A program made the translations under genes and the position numbers. A model generated the notes under the pieces. The model was not told the origin of the DNA. It was given only the letters and a program-made list of their open reading frames with translations, and searched no databases. Positions 27,449 through 57,638 of a DNA stretch of 60,734 bases are shown piece after piece; positions within the stretch are counted from its first letter, which is position 1, and each line of letters opens with the position of its first letter. The stretch is from an uncultured virus (IMG/VR IMGVR_UViG_3300046340_000069) (Duplodnaviria; Heunggongvirae; Uroviricota; Caudoviricetes), in IMG/VR virus record IMGVR_UViG_3300046340_000069. One strand, given 5' to 3'.

Positions 27449-27870
27449 CTATATGGAGTTGAAATATTCTGCAATAGTTATAATTTTTACTTCATCGGTA
27501 ATTCGGTTTTTGATGGTGATTGCGGTGTCACCTGTAACACATTTCCCGCTTTGACGAGGTTGTCCCCAATATTAGCTAACCAGTTTATTGATTATGCGGC
27601 AATCGGGGACAAAAAAGGATACTTAACGACAACGAAGCGGTTGCGGTCAAACGTCTTCAGCAATTTTTCCTGATATTTATAAAGTTTTATATTTGTCAAC
27701 CCTTTATCCAATGTAACGATTTTGATGTAATTATTTGCAAAATAATTTATATCTTTTTTGCACTTCATAAATTCGTTTACATTATCCTCATCAAATTCTA
27801 TGTCTACACCAATTCTTTTTAGGAGCGGATTCGATTGAAAAGAGTTTTCCAGTTCTTTTTTTCTTGCCAT
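27449..27870 (-). CDS. gp17: Large terminase gp17 fragment 1 (N-terminus to Walker A) plus 30-aa split-intein N-fragment; interrupted by a 56-nt gap at 27560-27615
   Basis: NPLLKR..YFANNYIKIVTLDKGL..LYKYQEKLL..NRFVVVKYP then, after the gap, RQSGK|CVTGDTAITIKNRITDEVKIITIAEYFNSI*. Confidence 0.85.
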
Positions 27871-27954
27871 TTTTATTTTTGCTTGGATAAGTGTTTGAGT
27901 AATAATATTTATACGCAATATAAATAAAAATAAAATATGGCAACATATAAAAAT

Positions 27955-28752
27955 TTAGCCTATCATGAATATAGGATATTCCTCCCATTCTGATGACATT
28001 TTCGCCAAAAATGCTTCTTTTTCTCGAACACCGTCGTTGTATAGTGAGTCAGCGTTAAACATCACCCCACTAGGAAGTTGTATATTAGAAAATTTTCTTA
28101 GATTTTGCCCAAATTGTATTTTGACAAGTATTGCGAAATATTCTTTGACGAATCTATCATTATATATCTTCGCAAATTGAACAGGATCGAGTGCGCGTTG
28201 ACACTGAATAATTATAAAACGATCTAACATTGATTCAATATCAAAATCTAGATATAATCTACCATTATTTCTATTAAATTTAATAGCAGTTTCCGCATTC
28301 AATATATTTATAATGTTTTCAATGCTTTGACGTAGTAGATAAATATCAGTCAGATCTAACATCTGACCACCATAAAAGTTAAACTGTTCCATTATGAAGA
28401 ATTCGGGGGATCGACCGAACATGTCATGTAGGTAATTATTATTTGTTCTGGCAACACTAGTAATGCCAATTATATAGTCAGGAACTATTAAAAAGTTTTG
28501 ATTGTCAAAGAATGACAATCCACCAGGATTCAATATTTGTGTGTGTGTCTTTTTGTTATCAATATCTTGCTGTGTAATTTTATATTTAAGATACACCTCT
28601 TCTGTGCCGTCATACACACGATCCTGGTATAGTTGGAGTACGTCATCAAGAAGTTGTTCTAACTGGGAATTCTCTACATTTATTTCTATTAGTGGCGCAC
28701 CTAATTTCTTTTTTGCGTAATCAAACAATGCTGTGCGAGAATTTATTGACAT
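27955..28752 (-). CDS. gp13: Neck protein gp13
   Basis: KLGAPLIEINV..QFGQNLRKFSNIQLPSGVMFN. Confidence 0.9.
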   Translation of the reverse strand: MSINSRTALFDYAKKKLGAPLIEINVENSQLEQLLDDVLQLYQDRVYDGTEEVYLKYKITQQDIDNKKTHTQILNPGGLSFFDNQNFLIVPDYIIGITSVARTNNNYLHDMFGRSPEFFIMEQFNFYGGQMLDLTDIYLLRQSIENIINILNAETAIKFNRNNGRLYLDFDIESMLDRFIIIQCQRALDPVQFAKIYNDRFVKEYFAILVKIQFGQNLRKFSNIQLPSGVMFNADSLYNDGVREKEAFLAKMSSEWEEYPIFMIG

Positions 28753-28780
28753 TTTATTAAATTTAATAATTTTGTGTTAG

Positions 28781-29188
28781 TTAGGGAAAATTTCCCCCGT
28801 CTATAAAATAGTCATTATCACCATCATTAGTTGGTGGTATAGCTGTATTTAATATGTCAGTCACCCCTTGAGTCACGGTTATTGTGCCAGAATATAATCT
28901 GTATACTGTGTTTGTATCTACTAATGTCGATATATCATATACATATTGCCCAGTCGCCATACTAGAGGTAGTAAGATTAGTCAACTCTATAGTAAATTCT
29001 CCTAATAATGGATTAGTTTTATTACATAATATATATATAGTTTCTGAAGAATTGTACACTCCTTGTATTGCTCCAGAAATTGCCCAACTGGTAATGTCTT
29101 TTGGTGAGCGATTATCATTCAATATCTTGATTGTTTCTAGAAACGTTGAAAACTGTTTAACTTCATAATTCTTTATAATGGTTTTCAT
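28781..29188 (-). CDS. Putative virion structural protein
   Basis: GQYVYDI..RLYSGTITVTQGVT, typical of Ig-like cyanophage virion proteins. Confidence 0.6.
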   Translation of the reverse strand: MKTIIKNYEVKQFSTFLETIKILNDNRSPKDITSWAISGAIQGVYNSSETIYILCNKTNPLLGEFTIELTNLTTSSMATGQYVYDISTLVDTNTVYRLYSGTITVTQGVTDILNTAIPPTNDGDNDYFIDGGNFP

Positions 29189-29400
29189 TTTTGTAGTAAT
29201 TGTTTTAATAGTGTTGTTATTTCTAATAAACTTTCTGACAACTCTATTACAGAAATTTCTAAATTAACTAATCTGAGATTATTGTTTTGAATATTAGCAA
29301 GATTATCTATATATTGTTTATACATATCACTATCTTGTAATAGTATAGCACCAGTAATAGGGTCTTTACATAATGATGGTTCAGAGATTATCTTGTACAT
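29185..29400 (-). CDS. Small hypothetical protein of T4-like cyanophages
   Basis: LCKDPITGAIL plus coiled-coil C-terminus; late promoter upstream. Confidence 0.6.
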   Translation of the reverse strand: MYKIISEPSLCKDPITGAILLQDSDMYKQYIDNLANIQNNNLRLVNLEISVIELSESLLEITTLLKQLLQK

Positions 29401-29481
29401 AGTTATAATGCTGTATTTATTATATATTTATGTTATAATGATTATATCGTTTATTATTAGTATGGCAAAACTTCGATAAAT

Positions 29482-29769
29482 ATAACATATGCCAATGGCA
29501 GTAGCTATAAAACACAAGTTATTATGCCAAGAGTAAATGGTAAGCAAATAAATTTTACTTCTAAAGATCTTAATTCCCTCCAGAATATTCATTTTCAGTT
29601 TGGTACAGAATCAGGATTAGTGTCTCCAGAACGATACCTCAAAGAAACTCCTAACTGGTTGCCCGATTCTACTATCCAATTCTCACTAGAACAGCAGAAT
29701 AAACTAGACCAATTAATTGAAGCACATTTAGAAAATCAGGCATCTTGGGATAAGCCTATTAGATTCTAA
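29482..29769 (+). pseudogene. HNH family relic (C-terminal part only)
   Basis: GSSYKTQVIMPRVNGK..ERYLKETPNWLPD..LIEAHLENQASW; HNH domain missing. Confidence 0.8.
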
Positions 29770-29881
29770 GAGGGGTCTGGAATGCCCCACAATGCACGAT
29801 AACTATAAATACGAGTGCTAGTGTCATAATCATAAAAATATGACCTTCTAAAAATCAATTAGAAGGTCATATTTTTGTATA

Positions 29882-32800
29882 TTAAGAAGCAGTACTGATA
29901 ATTCTAAGATTTTTTATGGTTGGGTACGATGCTTGATTGTCAGATTTACAAACAATCTTGATTTGAAATTTTTTGTATTGTGGTATGTTTCGTAATTCAA
30001 ATCTAAACTCTTTAAAATCACTATTGGCTGGGTATACAATAGATGGAACCAATACAAAGTTATTATTATCAAAATTAGGAGAATTGTCTTCTCTGGATAA
30101 CTTTAGATATACTTCAATACTCTCACTGGCGTTTCTAGTTGCATCCAATATGATAGTAATTGCTTGCGACGGAAGAATTAATGATATAGGTTTAGTGATG
30201 TATACGAATGATGACATAATATAATTAGGTAACAACTCATTCCCAGCAACATTATTAATTATATTGGTGGTAGCTACTACAGAACATTTATCATAGTCAA
30301 TAATTGGTGAGATATTTTCGTTACTGGTGGACATATCTATATTTAATTTCATAGATTTGGTGCCCAATATCGCTTCATTATCGGTAGATGCCACCAATAA
30401 TGGTTTGTTGAAATTAGTAGTTTTATCTATAGACAGATCAGAAGTAAATGGAATATATGATGGTTGGATTAGATTAGTACTAGAAATACTAGTTCCAGTA
30501 GTGGCGATTAATGATAAATTAACATTAGTTTCTGGGAAATATTTATAAGATATGTTTGGTGTGACTGATTCATATTGGTGATTGACAGAAACACTAATAT
30601 TATCCCCACCACAAACATTCGTATAATTGGCACTAGAAATAGCGTATACCCCAAAATTATCTAAATCAATTGGTACAATCGAAGTAAAGGTTTTATTTAA
30701 TTCTACTAGTGGAATACCATTTATAGAATAAATCTCTACTACACTATTTGTTAAATGCTGAATGATTGAAGTGTTATTCTTACCTCTACCACCAGCAGGG
30801 ATAGTGATTAATTTTGTGCCATTATTCACATTAATATATGATAGGATCTCATCATCTATTTTGATATAACCTGGATTGGTGATAGATATTGGTAGATTAT
30901 TTATAAATTGAGGTACCAATTCAGGAGTTTCTACTGGTATCGTTGTAGCCACTGTATACTGAGTGTCAGAAATAATATCAGTCAATATAGTTGGAATATA
31001 ATTAGACACTATATTCTTTATAGTCACACTGTTATTAGTGGTGTGCATCCCATGATTTTTGGAATATACACTAACTAAGTTGCTATTTTTTGTTGTGGTT
31101 ATATAATTTCCAATAATTTCTGGGAGATTGTCTTCATTATTAAAATTAATATTTCCAGTCAAACTAAATTTTGCTTTATTCAACTTGAATTTTATCGATT
31201 TCTTATTGTCTGCGATCCAATTTTTATAGTTTTGTGGGACGTATAGATTGGAAATATTAGGATTTTTGATTGAAACTATATCAGTTGTATTTTTTACTTC
31301 AAAGTCATTACTGAATATTTCATAATTATTTGAGTTAGATAGTACACAAATACAATATTGAGTATTGTCCTTTAAGTATACCATATTATTAAATTTAATA
31401 ATAGTAGGCGTATTTCCATCACTACTGGTAACTATATCTTTTGTATTTACGCTTATTTCTGAGTATGGTAGAATAGTTTCAGTAGGATAGTTATTTTCAA
31501 CAGTTCTCAACTGAACTATTAAAGGGATGAAATTATCTTTTTTGTTGAAGAATAGTTCTAATGAGGTGATAAAGCAGCCACCAACAATATTGTTATTAAA
31601 TGATTGAGTTATTGGACTATTCCAACCATTATTGTTGATGATATTACCATTGATCTGATTTTGAATTATGTTAGTGTCATTATTTTCAGGAATGCTTAGT
31701 GAGATGATGTCTTTAGTTTCGATGTTAGAATTGCCACCACACTGAAATATGGTTTTAGCAAATGTAGTATTACCAATTGCGGATAACACTAGTGTTCCTA
31801 CTGAAAATTTGTAATCGCTTTTAGTTGGGTTGGGAATAAATACATTTCCTGCAAAATTACCATTGTCATCACTAATGATATCAGTGTTTGTCAAAATTGC
31901 AATTGCCCCCGAAGTTTGTCCAATGATGTATGTGCCGACTCCAATATCCTCCACATTAAACTGATACCCGTCATTCCAATTTATTTTTATGGTGTTAGTG
32001 GTGCCAGTGTACACTCCACTAGATAAACTATCTACTTTGGCGGATATATAATTTGATAGTACTGTTGGCTGATATCTTGAACCTGTTAATACTCTAGTAT
32101 TGACATTTCTCCACAACAATTTTTCACCAACTACAAATGATATAGTATTAGTGCCATTAGTACCATCCTTTTTAATTACACAAGTAGAGGGTACTACTAG
32201 ATCTGTAATATTTTTTGAATTTATATATACATCCAGTTTAGTGTTTGGTTTTAGTGCATCTATATTTATTTTTATAGTTTGTTGTTTTAAGTAATTGTTG
32301 GTGTTAGTATTTTTCTTAGTAGATTTGTTGCTGGTGATAGGCAACCAATTTTCTTTGTCAGAGTAATCTCCATAAAACCAATTGTCAGAACTAGGATGAG
32401 TGTTTATAACACCTTCCCAATTATTCAACGCATATGGATTGACCTTCAATACATAATTTTTGTTATTTTGTTCGATAAATGTTGCCTCAGTATATGGTAG
32501 ACTGATTAAATTATTGCTTATTTTGTAACTACCATTATTAATTTTCAATTTTATATTTTTACTTGCAGTCTTTGGTACTAAAGTTTGATCATCGGGATTT
32601 ATGCTGCTTTTATATGCTAAATTACTTATGTCGGATAATTGGTAATTTAAAAATTCATCTACCACAAATCCAGTCTTTAGTCGAACTATTCCAGTATTGT
32701 CTAGTAATACTGTATTATTGGCAGTAGATTCTAATTTGTTTAATGCTATTTCATTTTCTGTATTTTTTATTCTTTTTTCTAAATTTCCAATATCTTCCAT

Positions 32801-35800
32801 AGTGTATCTCTTGTTTGGATACACCACAGTTTTAATGTCACTAATAGCTTTAACTACTGGTGGGATTTGTAATGTTGCTATCGCCAAACAATCTTGTGGC
32901 AGATCGGGATTATTTGGATTGTTTGCCGAAATACCACTAATTATTCTACATTTACCAGTAGTATCTATTATTAGTAAATCTGTTCTAGGAGTGTAATAAT
33001 TATAATCACCTTTTAGTATGGTGCTTGGTGCAGGAAATGATCTTAGTTTTAATAGTCTGGTGCTGGGGTTTAGACCACTATACAACAAACTATATGGGGA
33101 TAGGAGATTGCCTAGTCCAACAATTGTTGGAGATTTAGCATAGTATCTCAAATCGATTATATTAGTCTCTATATCATCAGTTGGGTTGATGTAAGAATCA
33201 ATACTCGTTATATCTCCTATACTAGTGTTAAAATAATCAAACACCACTACTAAATGATTGGTGGGTATGTTACTATTATTGATTATGGTCAATTTGTCGA
33301 TGTCATGAATGTTATTATTACTATTTTTTATTAATTTGTAATTGCCAGTTACATCAATATAATTTCCTCTATATACATTTGTCACTGTACTAGTAGTTGC
33401 AGTATTCCAATTGAACGCTGTATCAGCAATATTAAAATGATTGCTACTGTAATATATTAAATTTAATATATTACCAGTTATGCCTATTATTTTGGCTTTT
33501 ATATTCTTGTTATAAACAATATCACCTACATTAAATAATGAATTGTTGGATATAGTGATATTGTCGAAACATTCATTAGTGTAGTTGTTATTGGTATTGT
33601 CATTGTTAGAATATCTGACTGCCAATACATTACTCACATTACTATATCCTAAAGATAGTTCAGGATCATCATAACGAATACCATAGTCAGAAGGAACTAC
33701 ATCAGTTTTTGACTTAATGTACTTTATTACTTTATTTTGTATTAAAGTATTAGTAGTAATGGTTGGGGTGAGTAATTCTACGGTATAAGAAACTAACCCA
33801 TTCCCAGTAAAGGGCACTCCTAGATTTACTAAAGTTATTGTGTTAATCCCTGTAAATGTACCAACAAAACTTCCTACACTGGTCTGCACTAGCGTATCTC
33901 CACTATAAATTTCATTAATATTTTGATTTGGCAGTACGCCCACATTATTTGTGAACGATATTGAACTGTTTCTTATAATAGAAATAGTTTTGTTGGTGGT
34001 GTCTTTGATATTCTTATCTGTTAATGGCACATATAAGTTTTTGTTATTACTTTTTAGTATAGTAACAGATTTGTAGATGGTATCAATATTTTGAGAAGTA
34101 AAGCTATTGGATAAAGAAAGAGTAGTATTATTTAAAATGCCATCAACTGTGGTAATAACCCCAGCCAAATTTATATTACTTCCAACATGTAATTCTGATA
34201 TAAATTTAGAATTAATACCCGTTAAGGTTGTGCCATTGACATTGAAGTTGCTACCAGTCAAAACAAATTCTGTTTTTAATGTTGATGCCGCAAATCCGAC
34301 TCTACCAATACTTCTAATATCATCAATCAAGTAATCTCTTATTTCCAATATATTGTTGATGATATTGTTTTTTGAGTTAATAATTGGTTCGTTCAAAATA
34401 AATGTACCTGTATTGTTCTCCAACGTAATCATATCACCAACTACTGAATATACATATCCAGAAGAACCAGAAATTGTTCCAGTCACATGATCGCCATAGA
34501 CGATATTAGTTAATGCCCCACTTACTCTTAAATCGGTGTGAGTGGATAAATCTATCACATACAGTCTCACCGAATTTTGAAGATAATTAATCGATACGGC
34601 TTTGGCTACCCCAATAATCTTCGATGGGGTAGCTACAGTGCTAGTACTATATAAATTTATATTTTGTGGTGATGATGATACATCTAACATACCGCCTATG
34701 CCACTAATTTCAAGATAAGACCCACAATCTATGAATGATTGGTGATTTATTCTTCGGTTTGTTTTGGTGGGTAGGTCTACGGTTATTAATTGTTTATCTG
34801 GAAACTTGTAATTGTACCCCTTTACTACAGCATCGCCAGCAGACAATTCCACAGAAAAGTAATCATTTCCATTGATCTTATTTGGTTCACTCACCAATGG
34901 ATCTACATTGATTACTGTTCTATTTTGATCGTCTACCTCATTTACTTTATATACACCATTATTAAATAAATTATCTAGTGTTGGGTATACATTAATGTCA
35001 AAATCCTTGAGTACATAATTGCCAGCTTGTTTGTAAGTCTGAACCGCAATTGCATCAATAATTTGAGTATTTACACTTACATCGATTTTGTAATTGATAT
35101 TTCCATTCAATATTTGTACTAACTCTGTGTAATTAGTAGGAATGGCGGAACCATAAGTAAGTTTTACTACATTTGCTAATATTTGTAATCTGTCTGCTCC
35201 AACAGCAGCACAATTATTGAATCCATTCGCATTATCTGTTAAAGTTGCGTCATCTACAGCAGTGACAAATTTAGGAGTAAATTGTATCCCAATACTATAA
35301 TTACCTGTGTTGGTGTATTGATCTAATACCACACTAGTATTGTTCAGGTTGGTATAGTACCCGTCCCAATAAAATGTGCCCTGATTTACGTGTACTATAC
35401 TTGAATTATATAGTGTACTATTCGTGCTAATAGTTGTGGCAAATTTAATATTATTGAATGACAATATTTCATTATCTGCAAATTTGTTATATTGTACTCC
35501 CATCAATACAGTACCACCACTAACATATTTTACATATAATGATGGTTTGGATATAGTACTATTCTTTTTGCTTACATATGCAACTACTATGGCTTGTACG
35601 TTTGTAGTATTACCTTTAATAGTTTTGCCAATTAGTTTATTTATTTCTACATCGGGTGTATTGCCATTAAATAGATCATTTAATAATACTACATCTACCT
35701 CTTTGTCATGAGTAATCTCACCACCAGAAATCAAATCTCCATTTTGGTATTGTACATCAGATAAAGATTTTATTTGATTCTGAGCAATACTTTGTAGATT

Positions 35801-35917: not shown

Positions 35918-35989
35918 ACTAGAAATTTTTGTATTCTTTTTAATATTTAGTTTAATATAAATATCTGTATAAATATTAAATTTAATAAA

Positions 35990-37465: not shown

Positions 37466-37498
37466 TGACAAATAATTAAAATTTGTGTTATAATAGGA

Positions 37499-37726: not shown

Positions 37727-37734
37727 CACAGATA

Positions 37735-39438: not shown

Positions 39439-39444
39439 GTCTGT

Positions 39445-45521: not shown

Positions 45522-45556
45522 AAAATTATTAAATTTAATATTTATATTTAGTTCAG

Positions 45557-46354: not shown

Positions 46355-46421
46355 TTTTATATTTTGATACTTGTATTCATATTTAGAGTTATGGTGCGTT
46401 GTGGGGCATCCTAGACCTCTC

Positions 46422-46685: not shown

Positions 46686-46727
46686 AATTTGCTAATATAA
46701 AGTATATAATCATTATAACACAAAAAA

Positions 46728-47588: not shown

Positions 47589-47656
47589 TGTAACCCCAAA
47601 TATTGGTATTAATATTTATAAAAAAACTCCCCATTATTAACAGGGAGTTATTAAAT

Positions 47657-47806
47657 TTAATAATTATATTCTTCCAAAGTTTGTCTAGCTGCATCTTCTG
47701 CGGTTAACCCATTATTAATTAAATACCTGCGGCGCGATACTAGTTTACAAATCATTTGCTTATCGTTTTTTATACTAAAAATCAGTGTTTTTAATTTGGT
47801 GTCCAT
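47657..47806 (-). CDS. Small hypothetical protein (49 aa, not in the ORF track)
   Basis: MDTKLKTLIF...TLEEYNY*; start overlaps the upstream stop. Confidence 0.45.
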   Translation of the reverse strand: MDTKLKTLIFSIKNDKQMICKLVSRRRYLINNGLTAEDAARQTLEEYNY

Positions 47807-48198
47807 TATAGTTTATGTAGTGATGTGAACATAGTTTCTCCAGCAATTGATAACTCTAATAAAAATTCGGAAACAGTTGGCAATTTTGATAAATTATTAA
47901 GGTAGTATTCAACTTTGTTGAATATAAAATCAAAATCTGCATCGTCTGATATTAATACAGTTTCTGCTGACCAATCACCATCATCAATGTTATTAATAGT
48001 CACATTAACTGCCGCACCATTTTGTTTAATATTTTTTACATATTTTATAGACTGACGTAATTTGATCGATAGTAATCCACTATCATAATCAAACATTGGA
48101 AAATCACCAGTGGGTATATAACGAATGAGGTTATATTTAGACATTTCTCGAAATTTAAAATATTCTCGATAGACTGCGGACAAACTTTTATAGTTCAT
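47806..48198 (-). CDS. Hypothetical protein
   Basis: 130-aa ORF; no IscB PLMP or RRXRR motifs. Confidence 0.65.
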   Translation of the reverse strand: MNYKSLSAVYREYFKFREMSKYNLIRYIPTGDFPMFDYDSGLLSIKLRQSIKYVKNIKQNGAAVNVTINNIDDGDWSAETVLISDDADFDFIFNKVEYYLNNLSKLPTVSEFLLELSIAGETMFTSLHKL

Positions 48199-48224
48199 TG
48201 TTATTAATATTTGAATGACCCGTA

Positions 48225-48447
48225 CTTACTAATAAAGTTACAAGTTCCTTAGACCAACATATCCAAGATGTCCTATTTAATAGAATCTAAACAATTAGAT
48301 TTATAGAGGTACAGCCTAGGAAAATATCTGAACGTATGTGCCAGGATATGTATTGTAGATGTGGTCAGACCACAAATGATCTAGACAAGACTTGAGTTAG
48401 ATATATTGTTATACCCAAGCCACGGGGTTAACCCCGTGGTTCTTGAC
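48225..48447 (-). ncRNA. Orphan IscB/IsrB-type omegaRNA (HEARO-like); 3' end approximate
   Basis: Minus strand begins GTCAAGAACCACGGGGTTAACCCCGTGGCTTG, then cttgtctaga, ttcctag..acctcta, aggacatc..gatatgttggtctaaggaact, resembling the cyanobacterial IscB omegaRNA layout. Confidence 0.7.
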
Positions 48448-48526
48448 AATTAATCTTTCGCTACTTATATATTATGACACCATCTCCATAAAATGGTTAT
48501 CCGCCATTTGGCGGATAACCAATACA

Positions 48527-51013
48527 CTAGAACAGCAAATCTTCTAGTGTATTGGATTCAGTTAATTCCCATCCTACAACATTTAGAACGCCCTCTAGGG
48601 GAGTTAAGAAACATTTCTCTAGCATTAAGTCGTGATCCACATACTGCTCTAACCCCATTTCTGGCGGTATGCTGCCAAAAAAGGCAATAATATTCTCGTG
48701 GATGGGATTGGGCATCTTTAGATATACCGTTTTAATTTTATCACCATTTTTGATTAATTGATATTTTTTTTCCAAATTATTAACAAGAATATATCCATTA
48801 TATACAATTGCAGACCTTGCACCAATAGGTGTCCCTTTTATGTATCCATTACTATACGGATCCGTATACTTGTTCACATCAGACACTCCACGCGCAACAC
48901 CAATTTCGGCAGAAGTTAGCTTTTTGCTATCAGACCGTACCCGATCTACATATTCAATCAATTCTGAATTATTAGAATTGATGATAACAGAATATGCAGA
49001 GTTCAACTTATCTCGAAAACACTTAGGAGTAGACGAACGTACTACTTCTAATCCAACTACCTTTAATTTTGGTTCTTTGTAGCGCACCCCTTCTGCATCA
49101 TAAACATTAGATATGTATCGTTTTTTACCAGTAATCAAGAATTTACTAGAAATCGTGTCCCGAACCATCGTAAGACACTGCTTATACACATGCAAATATT
49201 CTCCCAGTTCGTCATATATTTCTGATATCTTTGGACTGATAATAGCTTGACAATATTCGTCCAAATAATCAACTATTTGCTCATTATTCATACCTTCACA
49301 TTTAGCCAATACTAAATCGTTAAAATCAATAAACATAGAATCTGTATCGTTAGCAATAATACGGTCTTTACTCTTGCCTACTAGTTCAGAAATAAATATG
49401 TTAATTCTGTCACTCGCGCAACGAATAGCGACTTGTCCAGTATGCGTAATTGAAGTAGCGTTTGCTAAGTTATAATACCTGAAATATGGCGATCCTAGAA
49501 CACCATAAGCACTATTCATGGCAATTTTTTTGGCAAGCTGTATGTTATTGTAGGTAGATATATCTATCGCTAATTGCTCGGTAGGATTAATTTGATATTC
49601 CTTTTCTGCTTCTTTTTGTAATTTTTTATAATGTTTTCGTTCACTATAGTACTTTGACATTAGTTGAGATAACATACCTTCACTAGTACGATCATACAAC
49701 GTACCAGAAGGAGAAATACAATAATCGGTGTATCGAGAGAAGTCTAAACTTTCATTCAATACCTTTTCTATTGTTATTTGTGGGTCAAATCCTCGTATAG
49801 TCTCTGGGGAGATATTAAGCAGTTGGATAATGTGAGGATACAGAGATGCCAAATCGAATGACACAACCCAACTATACATACCAGGGTTAGGTTCTTTGAC
49901 AAATGCACCATCAAATTTGTCATCTTTGGTATTATAAGCTTTAGAAGGAACTACTATATTTCTTTCTTTGAGGTAATTATAGATAATATTATCCCAGCAA
50001 CATACTTGAGAATATACATCAGAGAAATTAATTTTGGCATCATATGATACTACTAATGCTAAGTCTAGTAGACCCATCTTTTCTTCTAATCGCCGGAGTA
50101 ATCGTACATCTTGTAAATTATAAGAAGTAAATTTGAAAATGTTTTCAGTGTAGAATGAAATCCAACTACCATACTCGCTATGATCTAACTTTTCTGCCCC
50201 CAATTCCACATTAGCAATATGATCCAATGAATAACTTTCTTGATTCTTATATGTAAACTTTTTGTAAAGCTGCATATAATCTAAGTGAGATACCCCTACG
50301 ATCTCATACACAGTATATTCATTACCAAAATCATAATCCTTTTTAGTATGAATCCTACCCCAAGGTGACAACTTCTTGCTATATGATTCACCCAAGACTA
50401 GATTGATTCGATTAATTATATAGGGAATATCAAATTTTATACCATTCCAACTAGAAAGAACATCTGGATAATTATCTTTCCAATAATTAAGAAACCCAAT
50501 CAGCATATCAGGTTCAGTGCTATATTGGTGATACACCGTATCTACTTCTTCTAAAGTTATATCTGCAATACCATACACATTGTATATCTTTGTATATGAA
50601 TCGTATAAAGTAAGACAAATTATACTCTCTTGTGGATCGTTTACATTGGGAAATCCATATTCGCTGGTAGTTTCGATATCCAAATAGAACTTCCTGACCA
50701 GTTCATTATTAAATTTAATAATTTCTGGAAACTTTTCTGATAACCATATATAGTTAAATTTCTCATAACCATACACTTTGAAATCAGTTACATACTCGTA
50801 CTCCTTAATAAAATCCTTTGCTTCTTTGACGGTATTGAAGGATTTTGGTGATACAAATTCGCCAGATAAAGTTTTATAATCAGTGGGAGTATTTGATTTT
50901 AGATATAAAGATGGGGAAATTGGTTCTTTGAATTGAACCCTTTTCCCATCCTGATACCCAATATAATATATAATATTTCCGAAAAGTTTGCAGCTAACAT
51001 ACTGTGCAGACAT
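48527..51013 (-). CDS. gp43: Family B DNA polymerase gp43
   Basis: LDIETT exonuclease, WNG..FDIPY, SFDLASLYP, KIAMNSAYG, NDTDS, KKRY. Confidence 0.97.
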   Translation of the reverse strand: MSAQYVSCKLFGNIIYYIGYQDGKRVQFKEPISPSLYLKSNTPTDYKTLSGEFVSPKSFNTVKEAKDFIKEYEYVTDFKVYGYEKFNYIWLSEKFPEIIKFNNELVRKFYLDIETTSEYGFPNVNDPQESIICLTLYDSYTKIYNVYGIADITLEEVDTVYHQYSTEPDMLIGFLNYWKDNYPDVLSSWNGIKFDIPYIINRINLVLGESYSKKLSPWGRIHTKKDYDFGNEYTVYEIVGVSHLDYMQLYKKFTYKNQESYSLDHIANVELGAEKLDHSEYGSWISFYTENIFKFTSYNLQDVRLLRRLEEKMGLLDLALVVSYDAKINFSDVYSQVCCWDNIIYNYLKERNIVVPSKAYNTKDDKFDGAFVKEPNPGMYSWVVSFDLASLYPHIIQLLNISPETIRGFDPQITIEKVLNESLDFSRYTDYCISPSGTLYDRTSEGMLSQLMSKYYSERKHYKKLQKEAEKEYQINPTEQLAIDISTYNNIQLAKKIAMNSAYGVLGSPYFRYYNLANATSITHTGQVAIRCASDRINIFISELVGKSKDRIIANDTDSMFIDFNDLVLAKCEGMNNEQIVDYLDEYCQAIISPKISEIYDELGEYLHVYKQCLTMVRDTISSKFLITGKKRYISNVYDAEGVRYKEPKLKVVGLEVVRSSTPKCFRDKLNSAYSVIINSNNSELIEYVDRVRSDSKKLTSAEIGVARGVSDVNKYTDPYSNGYIKGTPIGARSAIVYNGYILVNNLEKKYQLIKNGDKIKTVYLKMPNPIHENIIAFFGSIPPEMGLEQYVDHDLMLEKCFLTPLEGVLNVVGWELTESNTLEDLLF

Positions 51014-51063
51014 GTTTCAATTTCCTTATTTTAATACTATCGTATCACTAAAATTAATTATTG

Positions 51064-51285
51064 TCAATCATCGATTTCTATATATCCTTCACCTACTAAT
51101 GAAAAGTGATCGTAACCTAATGGCAATTGCATCCTCAATCGATTCCTTAATTGTATAGTGGCTGTCTGTAATATGGTTTCATATGGTTGTTTATAAACAA
51201 TCACTACACCAGATAATAAGGGTAGCTGATATTGAAAACAATAATATTTTAGTTTAGTATTCATAGCTTCACATATCCCACACAA
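51064..51285 (-). CDS. Hypothetical protein (start likely ATG at 51264)
   Basis: Short ORF in the operon upstream of gp43. Confidence 0.5.
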   Translation of the reverse strand: MCGICEAMNTKLKYYCFQYQLPLLSGVVIVYKQPYETILQTATIQLRNRLRMQLPLGYDHFSLVGEGYIEIDD

Positions 51286-51662
51286 GTTTGATATAATGCA
51301 GTAAATTCCGCACCATTCGCAGTAACCATAATGTCTTCATATATTTTTTGAGACAATTCTTCTAATTTACCTTCTGGTAAGTCTTTCCAGACTTCATCTG
51401 GTTTTGTATTAACTACCAGATCTACTTTTTTAATTTGTGAATAATTATTAGCAGGATCGACTCCTCTCAACTCACGAACTTTATGGTTCGGCATATAATG
51501 AAGTTGTTTGTTTAGTATCCCATATTCTTTAATCAAATCACAAATTTCTGGTACTGTAATACCTAACTGCATAGCCATATCTGTACGACTACAACTTGTT
51601 TTTGCTAATAAAATTATTTCTTCTTTTGTTGGTTTCATGTTCTTAATTAAATATGTTTCCAA
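51261..51662 (-). CDS. Hypothetical HTH-like protein
   Basis: SRTDMAMQLGIT..I motif. Confidence 0.6.
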   Translation of the reverse strand: METYLIKNMKPTKEEIILLAKTSCSRTDMAMQLGITVPEICDLIKEYGILNKQLHYMPNHKVRELRGVDPANNYSQIKKVDLVVNTKPDEVWKDLPEGKLEELSQKIYEDIMVTANGAEFTALYQTCVGYVKL

Positions 51663-52687
51663 GTACGTCTTTCTACCATATCCGAAACAGTTTTTCTATC
51701 CAAACTATAACGTCTAGATAATTCTCCTTTACTTACTCCTTCACTCCATAATCTTCTTATTTCTAATACTTGTTCGTCAGATACTTTACTATTCTTGTGC
51801 GAACTTCCAACCATTGTACGAGATTTGATGACAACACCTGGGAATATTTTACGCTCCACATGTTTAAAGCATTCTCGTCTCAATATTCTCCCTACTTGTA
51901 CTTGACTGATTTGGAATTTCTCACCAATTTCTTTTTGTGTCCATTTATGTATATCATACAATTCTACAATATGGAGAATATCTTCTTCACTTAAATCAGA
52001 ATTAGTTCGGAATTTCTCGGCTTTATCATTATTATTGTCTATTCTGGAACCTTCAAATAAATTATCTGGGTGAACATTTAATTTATTATCATCTTTATGA
52101 CATAAACATATATCTGAAGTTAATACTACCTTTGTTAGTTGATATATGATTCTATGTATTTTATGAGATGATGGTTTTCCATTTTTACATAAAGTGATTT
52201 TAGGATAGCCATTAGTGGTACTATACTTACACAACCAAGTATTTTCATCTATTACATCTATCTTACCTTCCAATTTTTCGATCATATCTTGCAAATATAT
52301 ATCACTCAATCCTAATTTATTTACAATTGGCACACCAAAAATATTAAAATTAATATCTAATTCAATATATGCACGAACTACTCGCACAATATTATATTTA
52401 TCAATTAATCGATTTATTGTAGATGGCGAACTATTAAGTAATTTAGCTGCTTCTGATTGATGCCAATTACATTCTTCCAATGCTTCCATCAACTGTTCTC
52501 GACTAATGCTGCTGAATTTAGGTTTTTGTAGAAATATTAGTTCCTTTTTATTAATCCCCAATCGTTTAATGTGAAGATGAATACCAGTTACACTGTATCC
52601 TAATTGTTTAGCTATATCAGAACCACTATGTACAGTTTTAGCAATATCAAGCAATTCTTTTTTCGTTAAAGTTATTTTATTAGCCAT
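51647..52687 (-). CDS. HNH endonuclease with multiple HTH domains
   Basis: GYP..HRIIY..CHKDDNKLNVHPDNLFEG..DN; HTH motifs; TWKHI end; directly downstream of terminase fragment 2. Confidence 0.85.
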   Translation of the reverse strand: MANKITLTKKELLDIAKTVHSGSDIAKQLGYSVTGIHLHIKRLGINKKELIFLQKPKFSSISREQLMEALEECNWHQSEAAKLLNSSPSTINRLIDKYNIVRVVRAYIELDINFNIFGVPIVNKLGLSDIYLQDMIEKLEGKIDVIDENTWLCKYSTTNGYPKITLCKNGKPSSHKIHRIIYQLTKVVLTSDICLCHKDDNKLNVHPDNLFEGSRIDNNNDKAEKFRTNSDLSEEDILHIVELYDIHKWTQKEIGEKFQISQVQVGRILRRECFKHVERKIFPGVVIKSRTMVGSSHKNSKVSDEQVLEIRRLWSEGVSKGELSRRYSLDRKTVSDMVERRTWKHI

Positions 52688-52727
52688 CTATACATCTTAA
52701 TTCAATAAATTAATCATAACATCCACA

Positions 52728-55139
52728 TCATTCTTTGTCAAGTACTATTTCTGAATCAATATCTATGCACTCTTGCTTCTGCTCTAATATGTTCTGTTCT
52801 TTTAATAAATTGTATAATTCTCCTAATTGTATGTCTCTCTCAACCCCCTCTAGATCGATGATACGAACAATACTACAAGATGAAAGCGACTCAAACTCCT
52901 GCTCGAATTGTTTAGCACTCGTATTCGCGATGGTCATTCGTTTAAATTCCGCATCTCTTCCTGGAATCATATCCCATGTAATCTCTACTGGCACATACTC
53001 ATTCTTACCATTCTTTGCATCAACAAAAATACGATAAAATAAGTTTAGCCCACGGGGGGTTTGTTCACCAACAAATCCATTATAGATAACGGAATGACAC
53101 CAAGGATCGTTAGGAACATTATCTAGAGAAAAATCATATAACTGTTCGATGTGGTCGTCATTAATCCGACGAATTTTAGTCCACAACAAATCCGGTCTAA
53201 CATTCAATTCAACAAATTCGCTAACACTACTATTAATTACAGATTGAATGATTGGTAATTTTTTAAGAGCATTTTGTCGATTCATGTGTACATATTTGTG
53301 TTGTCCCTCCCCATTAAAAGCAAAATATTGTTTAATATATTTCTTTTGTGTTTCTAATGGGAGATGTTGTTTAATGAATGGAATAAAAAATGGAATAGAA
53401 TCACTCTGTTTACGAAATTTTCTGATATTAGTCTGATAGCAATTCCATTGTTGTTTGTGAGGATGTTTAAAATTAATTATTTCAAAAAATTCTGGGGTGT
53501 AGCAATTTGGTATCTTCAGCAAAGTGCGACGAGAGTATCTCATTTTTCTTCTCATATGCCAATAATATCTTCGTTGTTCATATAACCCCTTTTTGATAGA
53601 ATTAACCACACCAATATTCAATAATAATAGGTGTATTTGTTCCAATAGGTCTTCATTAGTATTAGTGATGTATATATCACCATAATTGTTATTTTTTTTA
53701 CGATGATTCACTAGTGCCATACTATCGAAGCATCCTTGGAGAAAGGTAACAGTATTAATTTTAGACCACCGAAGGGGAATATCAGTTAGACCATTTCCAA
53801 AAGTAGTATACTTATCAGGAGAAGTGTACTTCAATTTTTTTAATACACTGGCTAGTTCAATTGAATCTATAATGTAATTAACCCCATCAAACTCATAATC
53901 CAGTCCAATATTTTTTATGGCATCATCATAACAATCCTCATCCAAATATCCACTATCCGTAATACGAAGAGTCAGAGTAATAAATCTGCCATCAGTTATA
54001 TAACCACTACCAGCATATATACCAAAAAAATAAGCAAATTCTGGAGTAACTATTGGGAATTTTTCAGAATCTAATGTATCCAAATTACCAAATATTTGAG
54101 TATTATATCTGACTGCAATAAAATCATTAGGTTCCAACTCAGATGCCCTAAACCAACCATATTTGCCTTGCTTACAGGCATAAAGTTTATGAGTAGTCGA
54201 ACACTCCAATTCAGTAAAATTAGTATATATTTTTCTAACGTTTGATTTACCGTTATTACACATAACAGTACCTTTATTATTTCCCTTCATACCCACTAAT
54301 TCATATGGTGGGATATGATATGATTTTTTCTCTAATTGATCTTTAATAAAAGTTTCGATGCGAGTATAACCTTTAGTGGTGAGAATATATGTATTTTTCA
54401 CTACACAAGAAGTGATAATTAATTTAGATTCTTTAGATGACGAAATAGTAGGATATACCGAGGTCATAAACTCTTCTTGGATACCATTAGGGACGAATGC
54501 GAATTCGTCGCAAAATACGATATTGAAGGTAGACCCGCGAACAGAGGTGGCACTGGTGGATGAGGCTAATATTTGAGAACCATTTTCAAGTTCGATATGT
54601 GTTTTATTCCATTGTATTACTCCTTGTTGTAACCACATTGGCAAATTTTCATATGCCATTTGTAGTCTACCTAATAGTTCCATAGATAGATCTCTTTTGT
54701 TTGCTAATATTGCAATATTTTGATGAGGTTTAAATAGTGCGACCCAGAGGGCATAGCAAATCATCGTAGTCGAGTTATGTGAAACTATATTATTGGTGAT
54801 GTAGAGGTCATCTTCTACATTCAATAAATCATACATATTTTCAATATTATCTGATTCATTAATAGCAAGAATTATATCAGGATACAAATATCCACCATCA
54901 TCCATTACCAATATCTCGTCCCCAACTATTAAATCTACTAGTTTAGTTTCTTCATACTCATCTTTATCATTCAATCTAATTAGAATATGATCGTCAGCAC
55001 AAGATAGATGATATTGGGTGGTGTATACGTTCCAAACATTATATTTAATAGTTTGCCCTACTCCAGCAAAATCTTTATATCCAGTAGGCGTTAGTACTTG
55101 CCAATCATTAGTATATTTTTCTTGTACAAACTCAGCCAT
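52728..55139 (-). CDS. gp17: Large terminase gp17 fragment 2: IntC1 (aa 1-122), ATPase extein, cis-intein, extein, IntN2 (last 53 aa)
   Basis: ..ITNNIVSHN|STT; ILANK, ELENGS, Walker B IVFCDEFAF; ITS|CVV...GEQ|TPRG; FEQEFE|SLS..LGELY. Confidence 0.93.
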   Translation of the reverse strand: MAEFVQEKYTNDWQVLTPTGYKDFAGVGQTIKYNVWNVYTTQYHLSCADDHILIRLNDKDEYEETKLVDLIVGDEILVMDDGGYLYPDIILAINESDNIENMYDLLNVEDDLYITNNIVSHNSTTMICYALWVALFKPHQNIAILANKRDLSMELLGRLQMAYENLPMWLQQGVIQWNKTHIELENGSQILASSTSATSVRGSTFNIVFCDEFAFVPNGIQEEFMTSVYPTISSSKESKLIITSCVVKNTYILTTKGYTRIETFIKDQLEKKSYHIPPYELVGMKGNNKGTVMCNNGKSNVRKIYTNFTELECSTTHKLYACKQGKYGWFRASELEPNDFIAVRYNTQIFGNLDTLDSEKFPIVTPEFAYFFGIYAGSGYITDGRFITLTLRITDSGYLDEDCYDDAIKNIGLDYEFDGVNYIIDSIELASVLKKLKYTSPDKYTTFGNGLTDIPLRWSKINTVTFLQGCFDSMALVNHRKKNNNYGDIYITNTNEDLLEQIHLLLLNIGVVNSIKKGLYEQRRYYWHMRRKMRYSRRTLLKIPNCYTPEFFEIINFKHPHKQQWNCYQTNIRKFRKQSDSIPFFIPFIKQHLPLETQKKYIKQYFAFNGEGQHKYVHMNRQNALKKLPIIQSVINSSVSEFVELNVRPDLLWTKIRRINDDHIEQLYDFSLDNVPNDPWCHSVIYNGFVGEQTPRGLNLFYRIFVDAKNGKNEYVPVEITWDMIPGRDAEFKRMTIANTSAKQFEQEFESLSSCSIVRIIDLEGVERDIQLGELYNLLKEQNILEQKQECIDIDSEIVLDKE
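53061..54407 (-). mobile_element. Contiguous 449-aa intein with LAGLIDADG-like endonuclease domain, ending in Gln
   Basis: Starts CVVKNT; block B CSTTH; FAYFFGIYAGSG and FLQGCFDS motifs; LYDFSL; ends YNGFVGEQ before Thr. Confidence 0.88.
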
Positions 55140-55304
55140 TTTATTAAATTTAATAATTCTATACTGATATTTATTGGTGTGTTTTTAATTATTAAATTTA
55201 ATAATGACCTCCTAAAATCAATTAGGAGGTCATTATTTTATGATTTGATACTAGTAGTCATATTTGTGATTTTTATGCTCTGAGAGGGGCATCCTAGACC
55301 CCTC

Positions 55305-56003
55305 TCAGAGCATAATAGGTTTATCCCAAGTAGCTTGATTTTCTAGATGCGTTTCAATAAGTTGTTCTAGTTTTGATTGATGTTCTGCTGTGAATACAAT
55401 ATTAGGATCTGGCAACCAATTAGGTACTTCTTGTAAGTATCTTTCGGGAGTGACTAATCCAGATTTTACTCCAAACTGATAATGCAAGTTTTGTAAGTAA
55501 TTGAGATCTTTATAACAAAAATTTATATGTTTACCATTTACTCTTGGCATAGCAATTTGTGTTATATAGCTACCATTATTATATGTTGCACCAATAGGGA
55601 GTCCAGATGACTTCTTTTGTATTAATATGTTAAACCATTGAGTAACTACTTCTAAATTAGAACGTTTATTATTACTAGGATCGCCATCTATATGATTAAT
55701 TACCCAATTAGCATTAGTTTTATATCCATATACTAACTCATGAATTCTTACAGTTTGTCCATCTTTTTTTGTACTAAATCTACCTCCACTATTATGATAC
55801 CAATTATATAGTTTTAACAATTCTACTTTATCAAGATCTATTGTGTTAGTATATATTTTACCAGATTTAGTATTCAGTACATGTAACGTTTCATCTACAA
55901 ATAGTTGATTGTAAGTAAGTTTACCTGCATATAGTTTATTGAGATTATGGTGAGGTTGATCGAATTGATAGAAATTGAGTATTTTGTCGCAGAAATGTAT
56001 CAT
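55305..56003 (-). CDS. HNH homing endonuclease, repeated family copy 4
   Basis: INHIDGDPSNNKRSNLEVVT. Confidence 0.88.
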   Translation of the reverse strand: MIHFCDKILNFYQFDQPHHNLNKLYAGKLTYNQLFVDETLHVLNTKSGKIYTNTIDLDKVELLKLYNWYHNSGGRFSTKKDGQTVRIHELVYGYKTNANWVINHIDGDPSNNKRSNLEVVTQWFNILIQKKSSGLPIGATYNNGSYITQIAMPRVNGKHINFCYKDLNYLQNLHYQFGVKSGLVTPERYLQEVPNWLPDPNIVFTAEHQSKLEQLIETHLENQATWDKPIML

Positions 56004-56005
56004 TT

Positions 56006-56377
56006 TTAATAATAATATATAGAATATATCTCAATCTGACGCATCCGATTTAGAAAATAGGTTTTTTCATTTTCAGTTTCAACTATCGCAACCGACGCAT
56101 AAAATTCAACACAATTCCCTAAGTCAATTCTTTCAACTTCTATATATTCTTTTAGTCCCGAACCAATTTTAAATATTTGATCTTTTAATATTATACCAGA
56201 TTCACCATTAACACTGATATTAATAATTTTGATATATTTTTCGTTTAAATCTTCAACAATTCCAGAGTATCTTTGAGATCTATTTTTGTACTTAACTAAG
56301 TTGCCATTAATAATGTTCAATATATTTTTTCTCGATGTGTATTCTAATAATATAACATTATTGGTGAGATATGTCAA
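56006..56377 (-). CDS. Hypothetical protein
   Basis: 123-aa ORF, start codon uncertain. Confidence 0.5.
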   Translation of the reverse strand: MTYLTNNVILLEYTSRKNILNIINGNLVKYKNRSQRYSGIVEDLNEKYIKIINISVNGESGIILKDQIFKIGSGLKEYIEVERIDLGNCVEFYASVAIVETENEKTYFLNRMRQIEIYSIYYY

Positions 56378-56414
56378 GTATATCTAAATATCAATATAAA
56401 AATTCAGTTTTTAC

Positions 56415-57638
56415 ATGTTAAAATTACTTCCGTCATTACAGCAAAATATAGGAAATTTGGTAGAAACACCAGATGGTTTCGAGAAATTTATGGGAGTGCA
56501 GAAAATTTATAGAAATAAATATATAGAATTAGAATTCTTAGACGACAATAAATTAGTTTGCTCACTTAATCATCCGATAAACACCACAGAAGGTATAATA
56601 TTAGCTAAAGATCTCACTAAAACTATAGAAATAATTGGAAAAGTAAATAATACTTTTCTTAAAACAAAAAAAACTATAAGAAAAAAAATAGAATTATATG
56701 ATATTGTTAATTCTGGCAAGAATCATTGGTATTATGCGAACGATATATTAAATAAAAACTGTAGCTTCATAGGTTCATCGCTCACCCTTCTTAATGCCAA
56801 TAAATTAGCAGCATTAACCCATAAAGAACCAATAGAAAGAAATGACAATATAGTTGTCTACGCAAAACCAAATCCTACGCATAGATATATGATTTGTGCA
56901 GACACCGCAGAAGGTGTTGAAAAGGATTATTCAGTAGCAATGGTGTTTGACATCACTACTGTACCATACACCATAACAGCTATTTATAAAAACAATAATA
57001 TTGCACCAATAGTATTCCCCAACATAATATTGAAATTGGCGAATGAATATAATAAAGCTTACGTTCTTGTAGAGTTAAACAGCATTGGATCACAAGTAGG
57101 AGATATTCTACATTACGATCTAGAATATAGCAACCTACTTATGACAGCCACCGTGGGACGAAACGGGTTAATTCTAGGTCAAGGATTCGGTAATAAGTGC
57201 AAATTTGGATTACAAATTACTAAAACTACAAAACGACTAGGTTATAGTAACATGAAATCTTTGATTGAAGATGATAAATTACTAATAGAAGATTTTGGTA
57301 TTATTAGTGAATTATCAACATATGTAGAAAAAGGGGATTCTTATGCAGCAGATGATGGTAGTAATGATGATCTAGTAGCTTGTATCGTATTATTTTCTTG
57401 GTGTGTTACCCAGCCGTATTTCAAAGAACTTACAGATTTAGACGTAGCAAAAGATATTCGGGAATTACACAGACAAGAAATAGAAGACGACATGGCGGTA
57501 TTAGGTGCTTTATTGATAAATGGAGAAGAATTAGAAGATGGTATTGTGGAAGAAGGTGGAGATCTGTGGTGGAATGCTAAGTTAACTGACAGTTATTATG
57601 AGTACGGGTACGAGGTGCCAGTTATTTATTACTTTTAA
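56415..57638 (+). CDS. gp17: Large terminase gp17 fragment 3: IntC2 (aa 1-115) plus nuclease domain
   Basis: TPDGF..F.GVQK..CSLNH..LYDIVN..YYANDILNKN|CSFIGSS.TL; nuclease motifs ADTAEG..DYS, ELNSIG, NDDLV. Confidence 0.93.
   Translation: MLKLLPSLQQNIGNLVETPDGFEKFMGVQKIYRNKYIELEFLDDNKLVCSLNHPINTTEGIILAKDLTKTIEIIGKVNNTFLKTKKTIRKKIELYDIVNSGKNHWYYANDILNKNCSFIGSSLTLLNANKLAALTHKEPIERNDNIVVYAKPNPTHRYMICADTAEGVEKDYSVAMVFDITTVPYTITAIYKNNNIAPIVFPNIILKLANEYNKAYVLVELNSIGSQVGDILHYDLEYSNLLMTATVGRNGLILGQGFGNKCKFGLQITKTTKRLGYSNMKSLIEDDKLLIEDFGIISELSTYVEKGDSYAADDGSNDDLVACIVLFSWCVTQPYFKELTDLDVAKDIRELHRQEIEDDMAVLGALLINGEELEDGIVEEGGDLWWNAKLTDSYYEYGYEVPVIYYF

Follow-up and report, generated by a model that had tools for sequence, protein, structure and literature searches.

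The stretch of DNA analysed here (the window) comprises 60,734 nucleotides (nt) from an uncultured virus, IMG/VR record IMGVR_UViG_3300046340_000069. It corresponds to bases 48130-108863 of a linear record of 109,315 bp, the completeness of which is 59% according to a CheckV estimate. The virus is a T4-like myovirus, in which PHROGs identified genes for the baseplate, neck, sheath, small terminase and DNA polymerase. The present work deals with the large terminase of this phage, TerL, the counterpart of T4 gp17. Its coding sequence was found in three separate genes (pieces 1, 2 and 3), the ends of which carry the halves of two split inteins: a short N-terminal half (IntN) at the end of one piece and a long C-terminal half (IntC) at the start of the next. 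Segments of TerL itself are called exteins. The 550-amino-acid (aa) gp17 of cyanophage P-SSM4 was used as the tiling reference, and a slash within a motif marks a splice joint. In the order of the protein, the features are:

27616..27870, minus strand: piece 1a, TerL N-extein codons 1-85 (M...NRFVVVKYP), aligned with gp17 1-82
27560..27615, minus strand: 56-nt coding gap (59 nt counting one CCT)
27542..27559, minus strand: N-extein of piece 1b, PRQSGK, the start of Walker A, gp17 82/83-87
27449..27541, minus strand: IntN1, 30 aa (CVTGDT...EYFNSI) and stop codon, short N half of the P-loop split intein
54774..55139, minus strand: IntC1, 122 aa, ending NIVSHN, with Ser at +1, long C half of the P-loop split intein
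54408..54773, minus strand: piece 2 extein aa 123-244 (STT...KLIITS), ATPase core with Walker B, gp17 88-209
53061..54407, minus strand: contiguous intein aa 245-693 (CVVKN...NGFVGEQ) with a LAGLIDADG domain, Thr at +1
52890..53060, minus strand: piece 2 extein aa 694-750 (TPRGLN...QEFE), gp17 210-266
52728..52889, minus strand: IntN2, 53 aa from Ser751 (SLSSCSIVRII...) and stop codon, short N half of the EFE/C split intein
56415..56759, plus strand: IntC2, 115 aa, ending DILNKN, with Cys at +1, long C half of the EFE/C split intein
56760..57638, plus strand: piece 3 C-extein aa 116-407 (CSFIGS...), nuclease/translocation domain, and stop codon, gp17 267-550

The five extein segments tile gp17 at 36-62% identity, with zero residues lost or doubled at the four junctions. 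Residues 1-85 of piece 1a align with gp17 1-82 (38% identity) and RQSGK with gp17 83-87. In piece 2, residues 123-244 correspond to gp17 88-209 (62% identity) and residues 694-750 to gp17 210-266, and residues 116-400 of piece 3 correspond to gp17 267-550 (49% identity). Terminase_6N was matched by piece 2 with 40.2 bits (Pfam cut-off 22) and Terminase_6C by piece 3 with 37.1 bits (cut-off 22.6). Piece 3 is located directly before the tail sheath gene, which is the place of gp17 in T4-like genomes. When the 109-kb record was searched in six frames with gp17, nothing beyond these segments was found, and there was a single Terminase_6N match. The processed TerL would measure about 561 aa.

An original prediction, made by a model from the letters of the window, had proposed a TerL rebuilt from three genes by two atypically split inteins, the fragments of which lie about 25 kb from each other, not in order, and on opposite strands. 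This layout holds, and the same spacing is seen in a contig from a separate sample (G003). The second fragment, 55139-52728 (-), is indeed an 803-aa open reading frame (ORF) that opens with a 122-aa IntC ending SHN/STT and closes with a 53-aa tail at EFE/SLSS...; the third, 56415-57638 (+), is a 407-aa ORF with a 115-aa IntC ending NKN/CSFIGS. The concatenated exteins are collinear with gp17 and gapless, and no intact gp17 occurs elsewhere in the 109-kb record (59% complete). Gapless tiling, together with the IntC homologies described below, supports a TerL rebuilt by two such inteins; a contiguous intein and a coding gap had been overlooked. The first fragment (27870-27449) had been taken for a single ORF. 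The stretch PRQSGK/CVTGDT...EYFNSI and its stop codon are present there, whereas the single ORF is not, as 56 nt of it are closed in all frames.

Pair 1 cuts the Walker A loop at RQSGK/STT. IntN1 begins with Cys1, IntC1 ends with SHN and the +1 residue is Ser. Pair 2 cuts EFE/CSF, with Ser1 (Ser751) at the start of IntN2, KN at the end of IntC2 and Cys at +1. Catalytic residues are thus in place in both pairs (C1...HN/S and S1...KN/C), and both have the layout of inteins split after block A, with 30 + 122 aa in pair 1 and 53 + 115 aa in pair 2; in this family an IntN typically measures about 25-40 aa, and an IntC of more than 100 aa carries blocks B, F and G. Block B (CADDH) is present in IntC1. 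Searches against the PDB matched IntC2 and IntC1 to 6DSL_B, the CatC chain of the solved Cat-TerL intein, with E values of 5.2e-10 and 7.6e-8, respectively. IntN1 had no match in the PDB. IntN2 aligns with CatN (6DSL_A) gapless from EFE onward and over its full length, though weakly (E 0.13). Because of this alignment, Ser751 rather than the Cys four residues on is taken as residue 1 of the intein. About 32 aa of IntN2 form the core aligned with CatN, the remainder being an acidic tail. The insertion site of the AceL and GOS-TerL inteins, which we take to be EFE/C(EFL), agrees with the EFE that opens the CatN chain.

A structural model of IntC1 (aa 1-140) in complex with PRQSGK-IntN1 scored 0.90, as compared to 0.02 for the best of three controls. 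This level is reached by 116 of 157 solved complexes and by 2 of 215 mismatched pairs. Runs agreed with one another in their contacts to at least 90%, and the pLDDT of the partner was 86 or higher. Since 6DSL, a similar complex, has already been solved, the model shows likeness to a working split intein and not binding of this particular copy.

The available part of a review (PMC11766414) gives Ser1/Cys+1, a 37-aa IntN and a 115-aa IntC for GOS-TerL, and Cys1/Cys+1, a 25-aa IntN and a 104-aa IntC for AceL-TerL. Since its Ser1/Cys+1 and its 115-aa IntC match these values, pair 2 is, by residues and length, a GOS-TerL-type intein. Pair 1 is of the same structural family and represents a new insertion-site allele at the P-loop, not at EFE/C. 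The two pairs resemble each other little: IntC1 and IntC2 align over 41 aa only, with 32% identity, and IntN1 and IntN2 share 4 of 30 positions in our own positional alignment. That they are mutually orthogonal is a reasonable inference. Orthogonality would be under selection, because a cross-reaction of IntC1 with IntN2 would cyclise or concatenate piece 2, and because a reaction of IntN1 with IntC2 would delete the ATPase core.

Piece 2 is further interrupted by a contiguous intein of 449 aa with a LAGLIDADG domain (aa 245-693), inserted exactly between S244 and T694 (KLIITS/C...GEQ/TPRG). LAGLIDADG_3 was matched with 34.1 bits (cut-off 22.5). The homologous intein of a relative, G001 (30 kb, 63% amino-acid identity), ends GHN/T, and several other protein clusters end GHQ/T at this same site. 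Despite altered motifs, the intein is conserved between the window and G001, with 0.28 nonsynonymous (pN) against 0.65 synonymous (pS) differences per site. In the window and in G001 alike, both LAGLIDADG motifs (GIYAGSGYI and LQGCFDSMA) are devoid of the usual acidic residue, and the homing endonuclease may be inactive, judging from these motifs. The same phage carries two more inteins in the large subunit of its ribonucleotide reductase, located in the record outside the window (G000:C1:4897-8109). One is of LAGLIDADG type (NFSS/C...VHN/C). The other, a mini-intein ahead of the catalytic Cys in the NLC.EI motif, ends SGQ/C, thus also with a C-terminal Gln.

The other interruption lies in piece 1. 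From the ATG at 27870, the frame is open for 85 residues to NRFVVVKYP, continues with FLSPIAA and ends at TAA 27594-27592. PRQSGK and IntN1 (27559-27449) are in the -1 frame, which is closed upstream by TAA 27574-27572. Consequently, the 56 nt between two CCT codons (27615-27560) are untranslatable in all three frames. Skipping exactly these 56 nt, from the candidate take-off codon CCT 27618-27616 to the candidate landing codon CCT 27559-27557, restores KYP-RQSGK, that is, the NRF-x6-RQxGK spacing of ordinary relatives. Independent initiation of piece 1b was also considered and was rejected, no ATG, GTG, TTG or near-cognate start being found between the TAA and the Cys codon.

The gap RNA is predicted to form a hairpin that begins 3 nt past the CCU, with an outer stem of 11 bp (27612-27602 with 27570-27560) and an inner stem. 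Upstream of the landing codon, and separated from it by a 4-nt spacer, is a GGGG run (27567-27564). The 121-nt stretch with the gap folds at -36.3 kcal/mol (z -3.4), and 0 of 200 shuffled sequences were as stable. A homologous gap of 62 nt occurs at the same place in G001 (locus L023), again with a G-run and a 4-nt spacer. The outer stem of G001 is altered on both sides and yet still pairs (CCCCUGGU with ACUGGGGG), which is covariation. The gap core is identical over 23 nt between the two phages, and in a sliding comparison it is 87-93% identical, whereas the flanking N-extein coding sequence is 57-73% identical. At least five lineages carry the break. P0012 ends ...KFP FLPLVAA before its stop, and in two lineages the break follows PRQ instead of P (P0006, ...KYPRQ FSSLVPA, and P0007, ...KFPRQ CVPLTNV, each ending at a stop). 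A blastn-short search of the 109-kb record for other copies of the gap returned none, and its 20-nt core was found only in the three known IMG/VR contigs. Rfam yielded nothing meaningful on 27300-28000 at E values up to 10. In a metagenome scan with the piece 1a alignment, relatives were at most 47% identical.

IntN1 and about 50 nt downstream of it are unusually alike between the window and G001 (IntN1 pS 0.34). The gap and IntN1 could move together as a cassette, or could be under a nucleotide-level constraint. Just past the IntN1 stop codon, the non-coding stretch 27412-27440 (-) is 83% identical to G001, above the value of the coding N-extein. Behind it, both phages have GC-rich hairpins that resemble terminators and are unrelated.

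In G001, the three pieces are present together with the gap and the contiguous intein. Its piece 1, with gap and IntN1, is located directly after the small terminase gene; piece 2, in which IntN2 starts SLSSCS, is found 7 kb from piece 1 on the same strand, and piece 3 is divergent. Synonymous sites are near saturation between the two phages (pS 0.65-0.87), whereas pN is 0.09-0.24 in the exteins, 0.27 in IntC1, 0.24 in IntC2 and 0.30 in IntN2, the region borders used being one residue off at IntN2. As pN is far below a near-saturated pS, every intein part is, by this measure, under purifying selection. A distant genome of 146 kb (G004) also encodes TerL in three pieces with the same two split sites (L047; L071 1393-3120(-); L073 1324-2598(-)). 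Its contiguous intein is elsewhere, in the Walker B region (DV/C...SHN/CILDEA), and its pieces 2 and 3 are separated by two large endonuclease genes.

The window DNA was found in freshwater metagenomes, and identical DNA including the gap is present in 24 listed runs. Contigs from two of these runs (X19 and X24) span the 56-nt gap with 0 differences. A phage identical at 100%, gap included, is also represented by IMG/VR contigs from two other samples (L004 and L005). In one of these two contigs, G003, pieces 3, 2 and 1 are 100% identical to those of the window and have the same 24.9-kb spacing. Four low-share runs at 80% likeness contained only fragmentary identical contigs; neither variants nor a gapless DNA form were seen in them.

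Homologues of piece 2 were sorted into classes by our own motif rules, using the best 120 of 3992 protein clusters (E <= 1e-10). Seven of the 120 have both an IntC start and an IntN after EFE, and are thus middle pieces of three-piece terminases. An IntC start with a normal C-terminus, the signature of a two-piece TerL split at the P-loop, was seen in 48, and a normal N-terminus with an IntN after EFE, the two-piece AceL/GOS type, in 13. A further 44 look whole at both ends and 8 were left unclassified. On the N-terminal side, the best 150 library representatives of piece 1a include at least 17 short N-pieces ending RQxGK/C plus a short IntN. Junctions of the RQSGK/C type were examined at 24 of 26 IMG/VR loci, two window-identical loci being left out. 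The frame stops at most 41 residues past the matched stretch at 17 of the 24, the mark of a split intein (among them one at another site and several near-duplicates), and continues for more than 240 residues at 7, the mark of a contiguous one. Going by these counts, the P-loop atypical split intein is common and the three-piece form is a recurrent combination of two common alleles. The arrangement had been presented as unusual; two splits in one protein do occur here, and the claim of uniqueness is softened by the recurrence of the three-piece form in other uncultured phages. When shorter proteins were searched with residues 694-803 of piece 2, only 2 matches were obtained, which were uninformative. 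A match of phage B23 to piece 3 residues 49-381 was rejected, since B23 has no intein at that site; it has a contiguous P-loop intein.

The P-loop split also occurs in a cultured phage, Delftia phage PhiW-14 (GQ357915.1). Its annotated gp17 opens with an IntC of the IntC1 family (...NGVASHN/TTT), and an unannotated 155-aa ORF between gp16 and gp17 (L084 2431-2898 (+)) ends ...ARQMGK/C plus about 45 aa. A viable phage would thus use a P-loop atypical split TerL joint.

Three further loci carry intein-like joints. In L054 (2501-2593), the end of a TerL fragment reads ...LLIIDE/CVAGDTKITIKNKNT... with about 30 aa in addition, apparently a third atypical split, located at Walker B. A distant TerL N-piece in L009 (1988-2600; ...GLLPRQ/CCSADTMINT...) stops about 40 residues on, with many stops after; to judge from its sequence, it may contain an intein or a split intein one step earlier in the P-loop, after RQ. 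In L026 (1565-2400), a TerL shows an intein start in the Walker B region, GGSYN/CISGDSIITIKDRLTGE..., the sequence of which resembles IntN1.

From the anatomy, the tiling, the homologies, the conservation and the recurrence described above, we infer splicing, an order of events, orthogonality of the pairs and a way of skipping the gap. Piece 1 would supply N-extein residues 1-90 and end in the 30-aa IntN1. For this, the 56-nt hairpin in its mRNA would be skipped exactly, with take-off at CCU and landing on the second CCU after the G-run. IntN1 would dock into IntC1, leading to trans-splicing at RQSGK/STT, and IntN2 into IntC2, leading to trans-splicing at EFE/CSF. The contiguous LAGLIDADG intein would cis-splice at ITS/TPRG via its C-terminal Gln. 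It is highly probable, in our judgement, that the three dispersed genes encode one gp17-type TerL that is trans-spliced by two atypically split inteins at GK/S and EFE/C. Among the ways of skipping the gap, ribosome hopping is for us the most likely, with about even odds. The most complete proposal is offered more tentatively, as plausible rather than probable: four repairs of one gene would be made by two co-evolved orthogonal split pairs (the new P-loop pair and the GOS-type pair) joining the three polypeptides in order, a Gln-ended cis-intein and a new terL-specific bypass, in which landing would be set by the geometry of the G-run and the hairpin and not by a matched codon.

Several observations weigh against parts of this reading. 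As the record is about 59% complete, a second terL beyond it is possible. In IntC2, the penultimate residue is not the usual His (the window has KN, G001 has NN). The Pfam Intein_splicing match on the contiguous intein, at 35.2 bits, is just below the cut-off of 35.8, and this intein ends EQ instead of HN, with Cys1 and the +1 Thr present. Its terminal Gln is not necessarily a defect: it is perhaps tolerated, because GHQ/T recurs at the site and SGQ/C is found in the ribonucleotide reductase of this phage. Inteins ending in Gln reportedly splice, a finding attributed to Amitai et al. 2004. As regards hopping, G001 (L023) has UCA and not CCU at the landing place, and in P0006 and P0007 the break is positioned after PRQ, not P. 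The codon after take-off is UUU, neither a stop nor a known rare codon, with an in-frame UAA 7 codons on, and we know of no nascent-peptide signal. Finally, both pairs belong to the AceL/GOS family, so that orthogonality is not guaranteed; in the part of the review available, the IntN parts of AceL and GOS are reported to be interchangeable (PMC11766414).

The main competitor leaves the three-piece model as it is and has the 56-nt hairpin excised from the mRNA, as a new mini-intron or by cutting and religation. Such excision would be helped by a hairpin that brings both ends of the gap together; it would also suit the lack of matched take-off and landing codons in L023, a break whose position relative to the PRQ codons varies by lineage, and a gap core more conserved than the coding flanks. 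It is opposed by 3' boundary sequences that differ between the window and L023, by a size far below that of group I or II introns and by the lack of any Rfam match at E values up to 10. To our knowledge it has no precedent, which also counts against it, and we regard it as unlikely, if worth keeping in view. Alternatively, a -1 frameshift at the heptamer U_UUU_UUG would add about 20 residues before the P-loop. In the window as in L023, the heptamer is found at the break and is closely followed by the hairpin, and the -1 frame of L023 is open through the gap. In the window, however, this frame contains TAA 27574-27572 in every assembly, which rules the frameshift out there, and a suppressor tRNA is lacking, as no tRNA genes were found in the record. 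P0006 (PRQ FSS...) cannot carry the heptamer, and the insert would fall between strand 1 and the P-loop. A frameshift is very improbable as the general explanation.

Other alternatives concern the gene as a whole. Four interruptions in one essential gene, a contiguous intein that ends EQ and has degenerate-looking LAGLIDADG motifs, and an incomplete record would be compatible with a decaying terL in a defective or satellite-dependent phage, the pieces being relics. Against G001, however, pN is far below pS in all extein and intein parts; diverged lineages show the same architecture with intact catalytic residues, Gln-ending inteins recur (GHQ/T at the same site, and in the ribonucleotide reductase), and the phage sequence is identical in 24 listed runs. 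Decay is therefore very unlikely. Split-intein halves bind tightly, and the pieces might then assemble non-covalently through them, or one pair might be non-splicing, with TerL functional unligated; the missing penultimate His of IntC2 would fit. But both joints cut conserved active-site motifs, P-loop GK/S and EFE/C, and the nucleophiles and terminal Asn are under selection in diverged relatives. Moreover, splicing in vitro is reported for GOS-TerL, the Ser1/Cys+1 chemistry of which is the same (PMC11766414), and we see only a slight chance for unligated assembly. That the dispersed layout is an assembly chimera has a practically negligible probability. The contig is indeed metagenome-assembled, but G003, from another sample, shows 100% identity and the same 24.9-kb spacing, and G001 keeps the relative order and strands at another spacing.

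Single atypical TerL splits are known from the partly available literature: AceL-TerL, GOS-TerL and one Lake Gatun terminase. With GOS-TerL, AceL-TerL and Cat-TerL, the present inteins share the split between blocks A and B and the combination of a short IntN with a long IntC. Those terminases have a single split and two pieces, whereas two such inteins interrupt one TerL here, and pair 1 differs by its position at the P-loop (GK/S, Cys1/Ser+1). In PhiW-14 there are only two adjacent pieces, with no second split, gap or contiguous intein. Fractured genes, as described by Dassa et al. 2009 (PMC2677866), are phage housekeeping genes that a split intein interrupts and that have a free-standing endonuclease gene beside the intein halves. 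Endonuclease-like genes likewise flank all three pieces here. The cases in that text have one split and three ORFs in a row on one strand, in contrast to two splits over 25 kb and both strands in the window. Also in that paper is a terminase of gp17 type from Lake Gatun, a freshwater site, in which the break is unusual and the C part has 122 residues.

As far as the available portions of the bypassing literature go, known gene 60-type bypass homologues are all in topoisomerase genes (Manning and Atkins preprint, 10.1101/2022.08.31.505936). The gap of piece 1 resembles that of T4 gene 60, as it appears there, in being an untranslatable insert of about 50-60 nt (50 nt in gene 60) in an essential phage gene. 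Matched codons (in the window), a take-off-side stem-loop, an SD (Shine-Dalgarno)-like G-run before landing and an in-frame stop are also common to both, as are a gap more conserved than its coding flanks and homing-endonuclease genes nearby. By the same partial account, the differences are that the host gene is terL here, that the stop is 7 codons past take-off and not adjacent to it, and that the landing codon of L023 is unmatched (CCU/UCA) as compared to CCU/CCU in the window. In the terminase of Streptomyces phage Hau3, the accessible text of PMC10732093 describes a candidate bypass in which a coding gap is proposed to be hopped. Both cases thus involve a coding gap in a large terminase gene for which hopping is proposed; in what is accessible, those of Hau3 are short and tied to a rare UUA codon, unlike the 56-nt conserved hairpin found here. 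In searches of open-access papers and bioRxiv, we met no account of a natural protein interrupted by two split inteins, none of an atypical split TerL intein at the P-loop and none of the PhiW-14 arrangement.

Natural split inteins are workhorses of protein ligation. The P-loop form (Cys1/Ser+1, 30-aa IntN) would be a second, widespread insertion-site allele of the atypical split inteins, and two pairs side by side in one protein are a candidate kit for one-pot ligation of three fragments. The pairs may be ready-made for this use, because the costs of cross-reaction would select them to work side by side. The window also shows an extreme load of selfish elements on one essential gene, with three inteins, a coding gap and flanking endonuclease genes, and suggests that fracturing and rearrangement can scatter a core gene over 30 kb in a phage that survives. 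Such scattering would account for terL genes annotated as 'truncated' or missing in metagenomic phages, as well as in at least one phage in culture. Should the gap indeed be hopped, long-range translational bypassing would extend beyond T4 gene 60.

Pieces 1 and 2 are each followed directly by an endonuclease or endonuclease-like gene, and others are located between pieces 2 and 3 and downstream of piece 3:

27007..27345, minus strand: 112-aa ORF, a weak homing-endonuclease-related remnant (PHROG 3377 'HNH endonuclease', E 2e-6; in Pfam, a below-cut-off zinc finger only)
51647..52687, minus strand: 346-aa protein with multiple helix-turn-helix (HTH) motifs, directly downstream of piece 2 (PHROG 59, HNH homing endonuclease, E 7.5e-31; in Pfam, HTH only)
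55305..56003, minus strand: HNH_3 endonuclease gene between pieces 2 and 3 (PHROG/Pfam)
58135..58434, plus strand: 99-aa GIY-YIG/T5orf172 endonuclease-like ORF between piece 3 and the tail sheath gene

By analogy with fractured genes, two intein alleles of terL were probably 'fractured' by homing endonucleases, and the pieces then scattered by rearrangements. In the window, 15 kb separate the small terminase gene from piece 1, and the two adjoin in G001, which is why further rearrangement after fracturing is proposed.

The motif TATAAATA, which resembles a T4-type late promoter, occurs 28 times overall as compared to 22.9 expected, showing no enrichment. Exact copies are absent upstream of pieces 2 and 3, where near-matches only were seen. 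An exact copy at 27906-27913 (-) is positioned 36 nt before the start of piece 1, and TATAAATA is also found 20-40 nt before the structural genes starting at 24779, 35990, 43015, 45521, 47588 and 58470.

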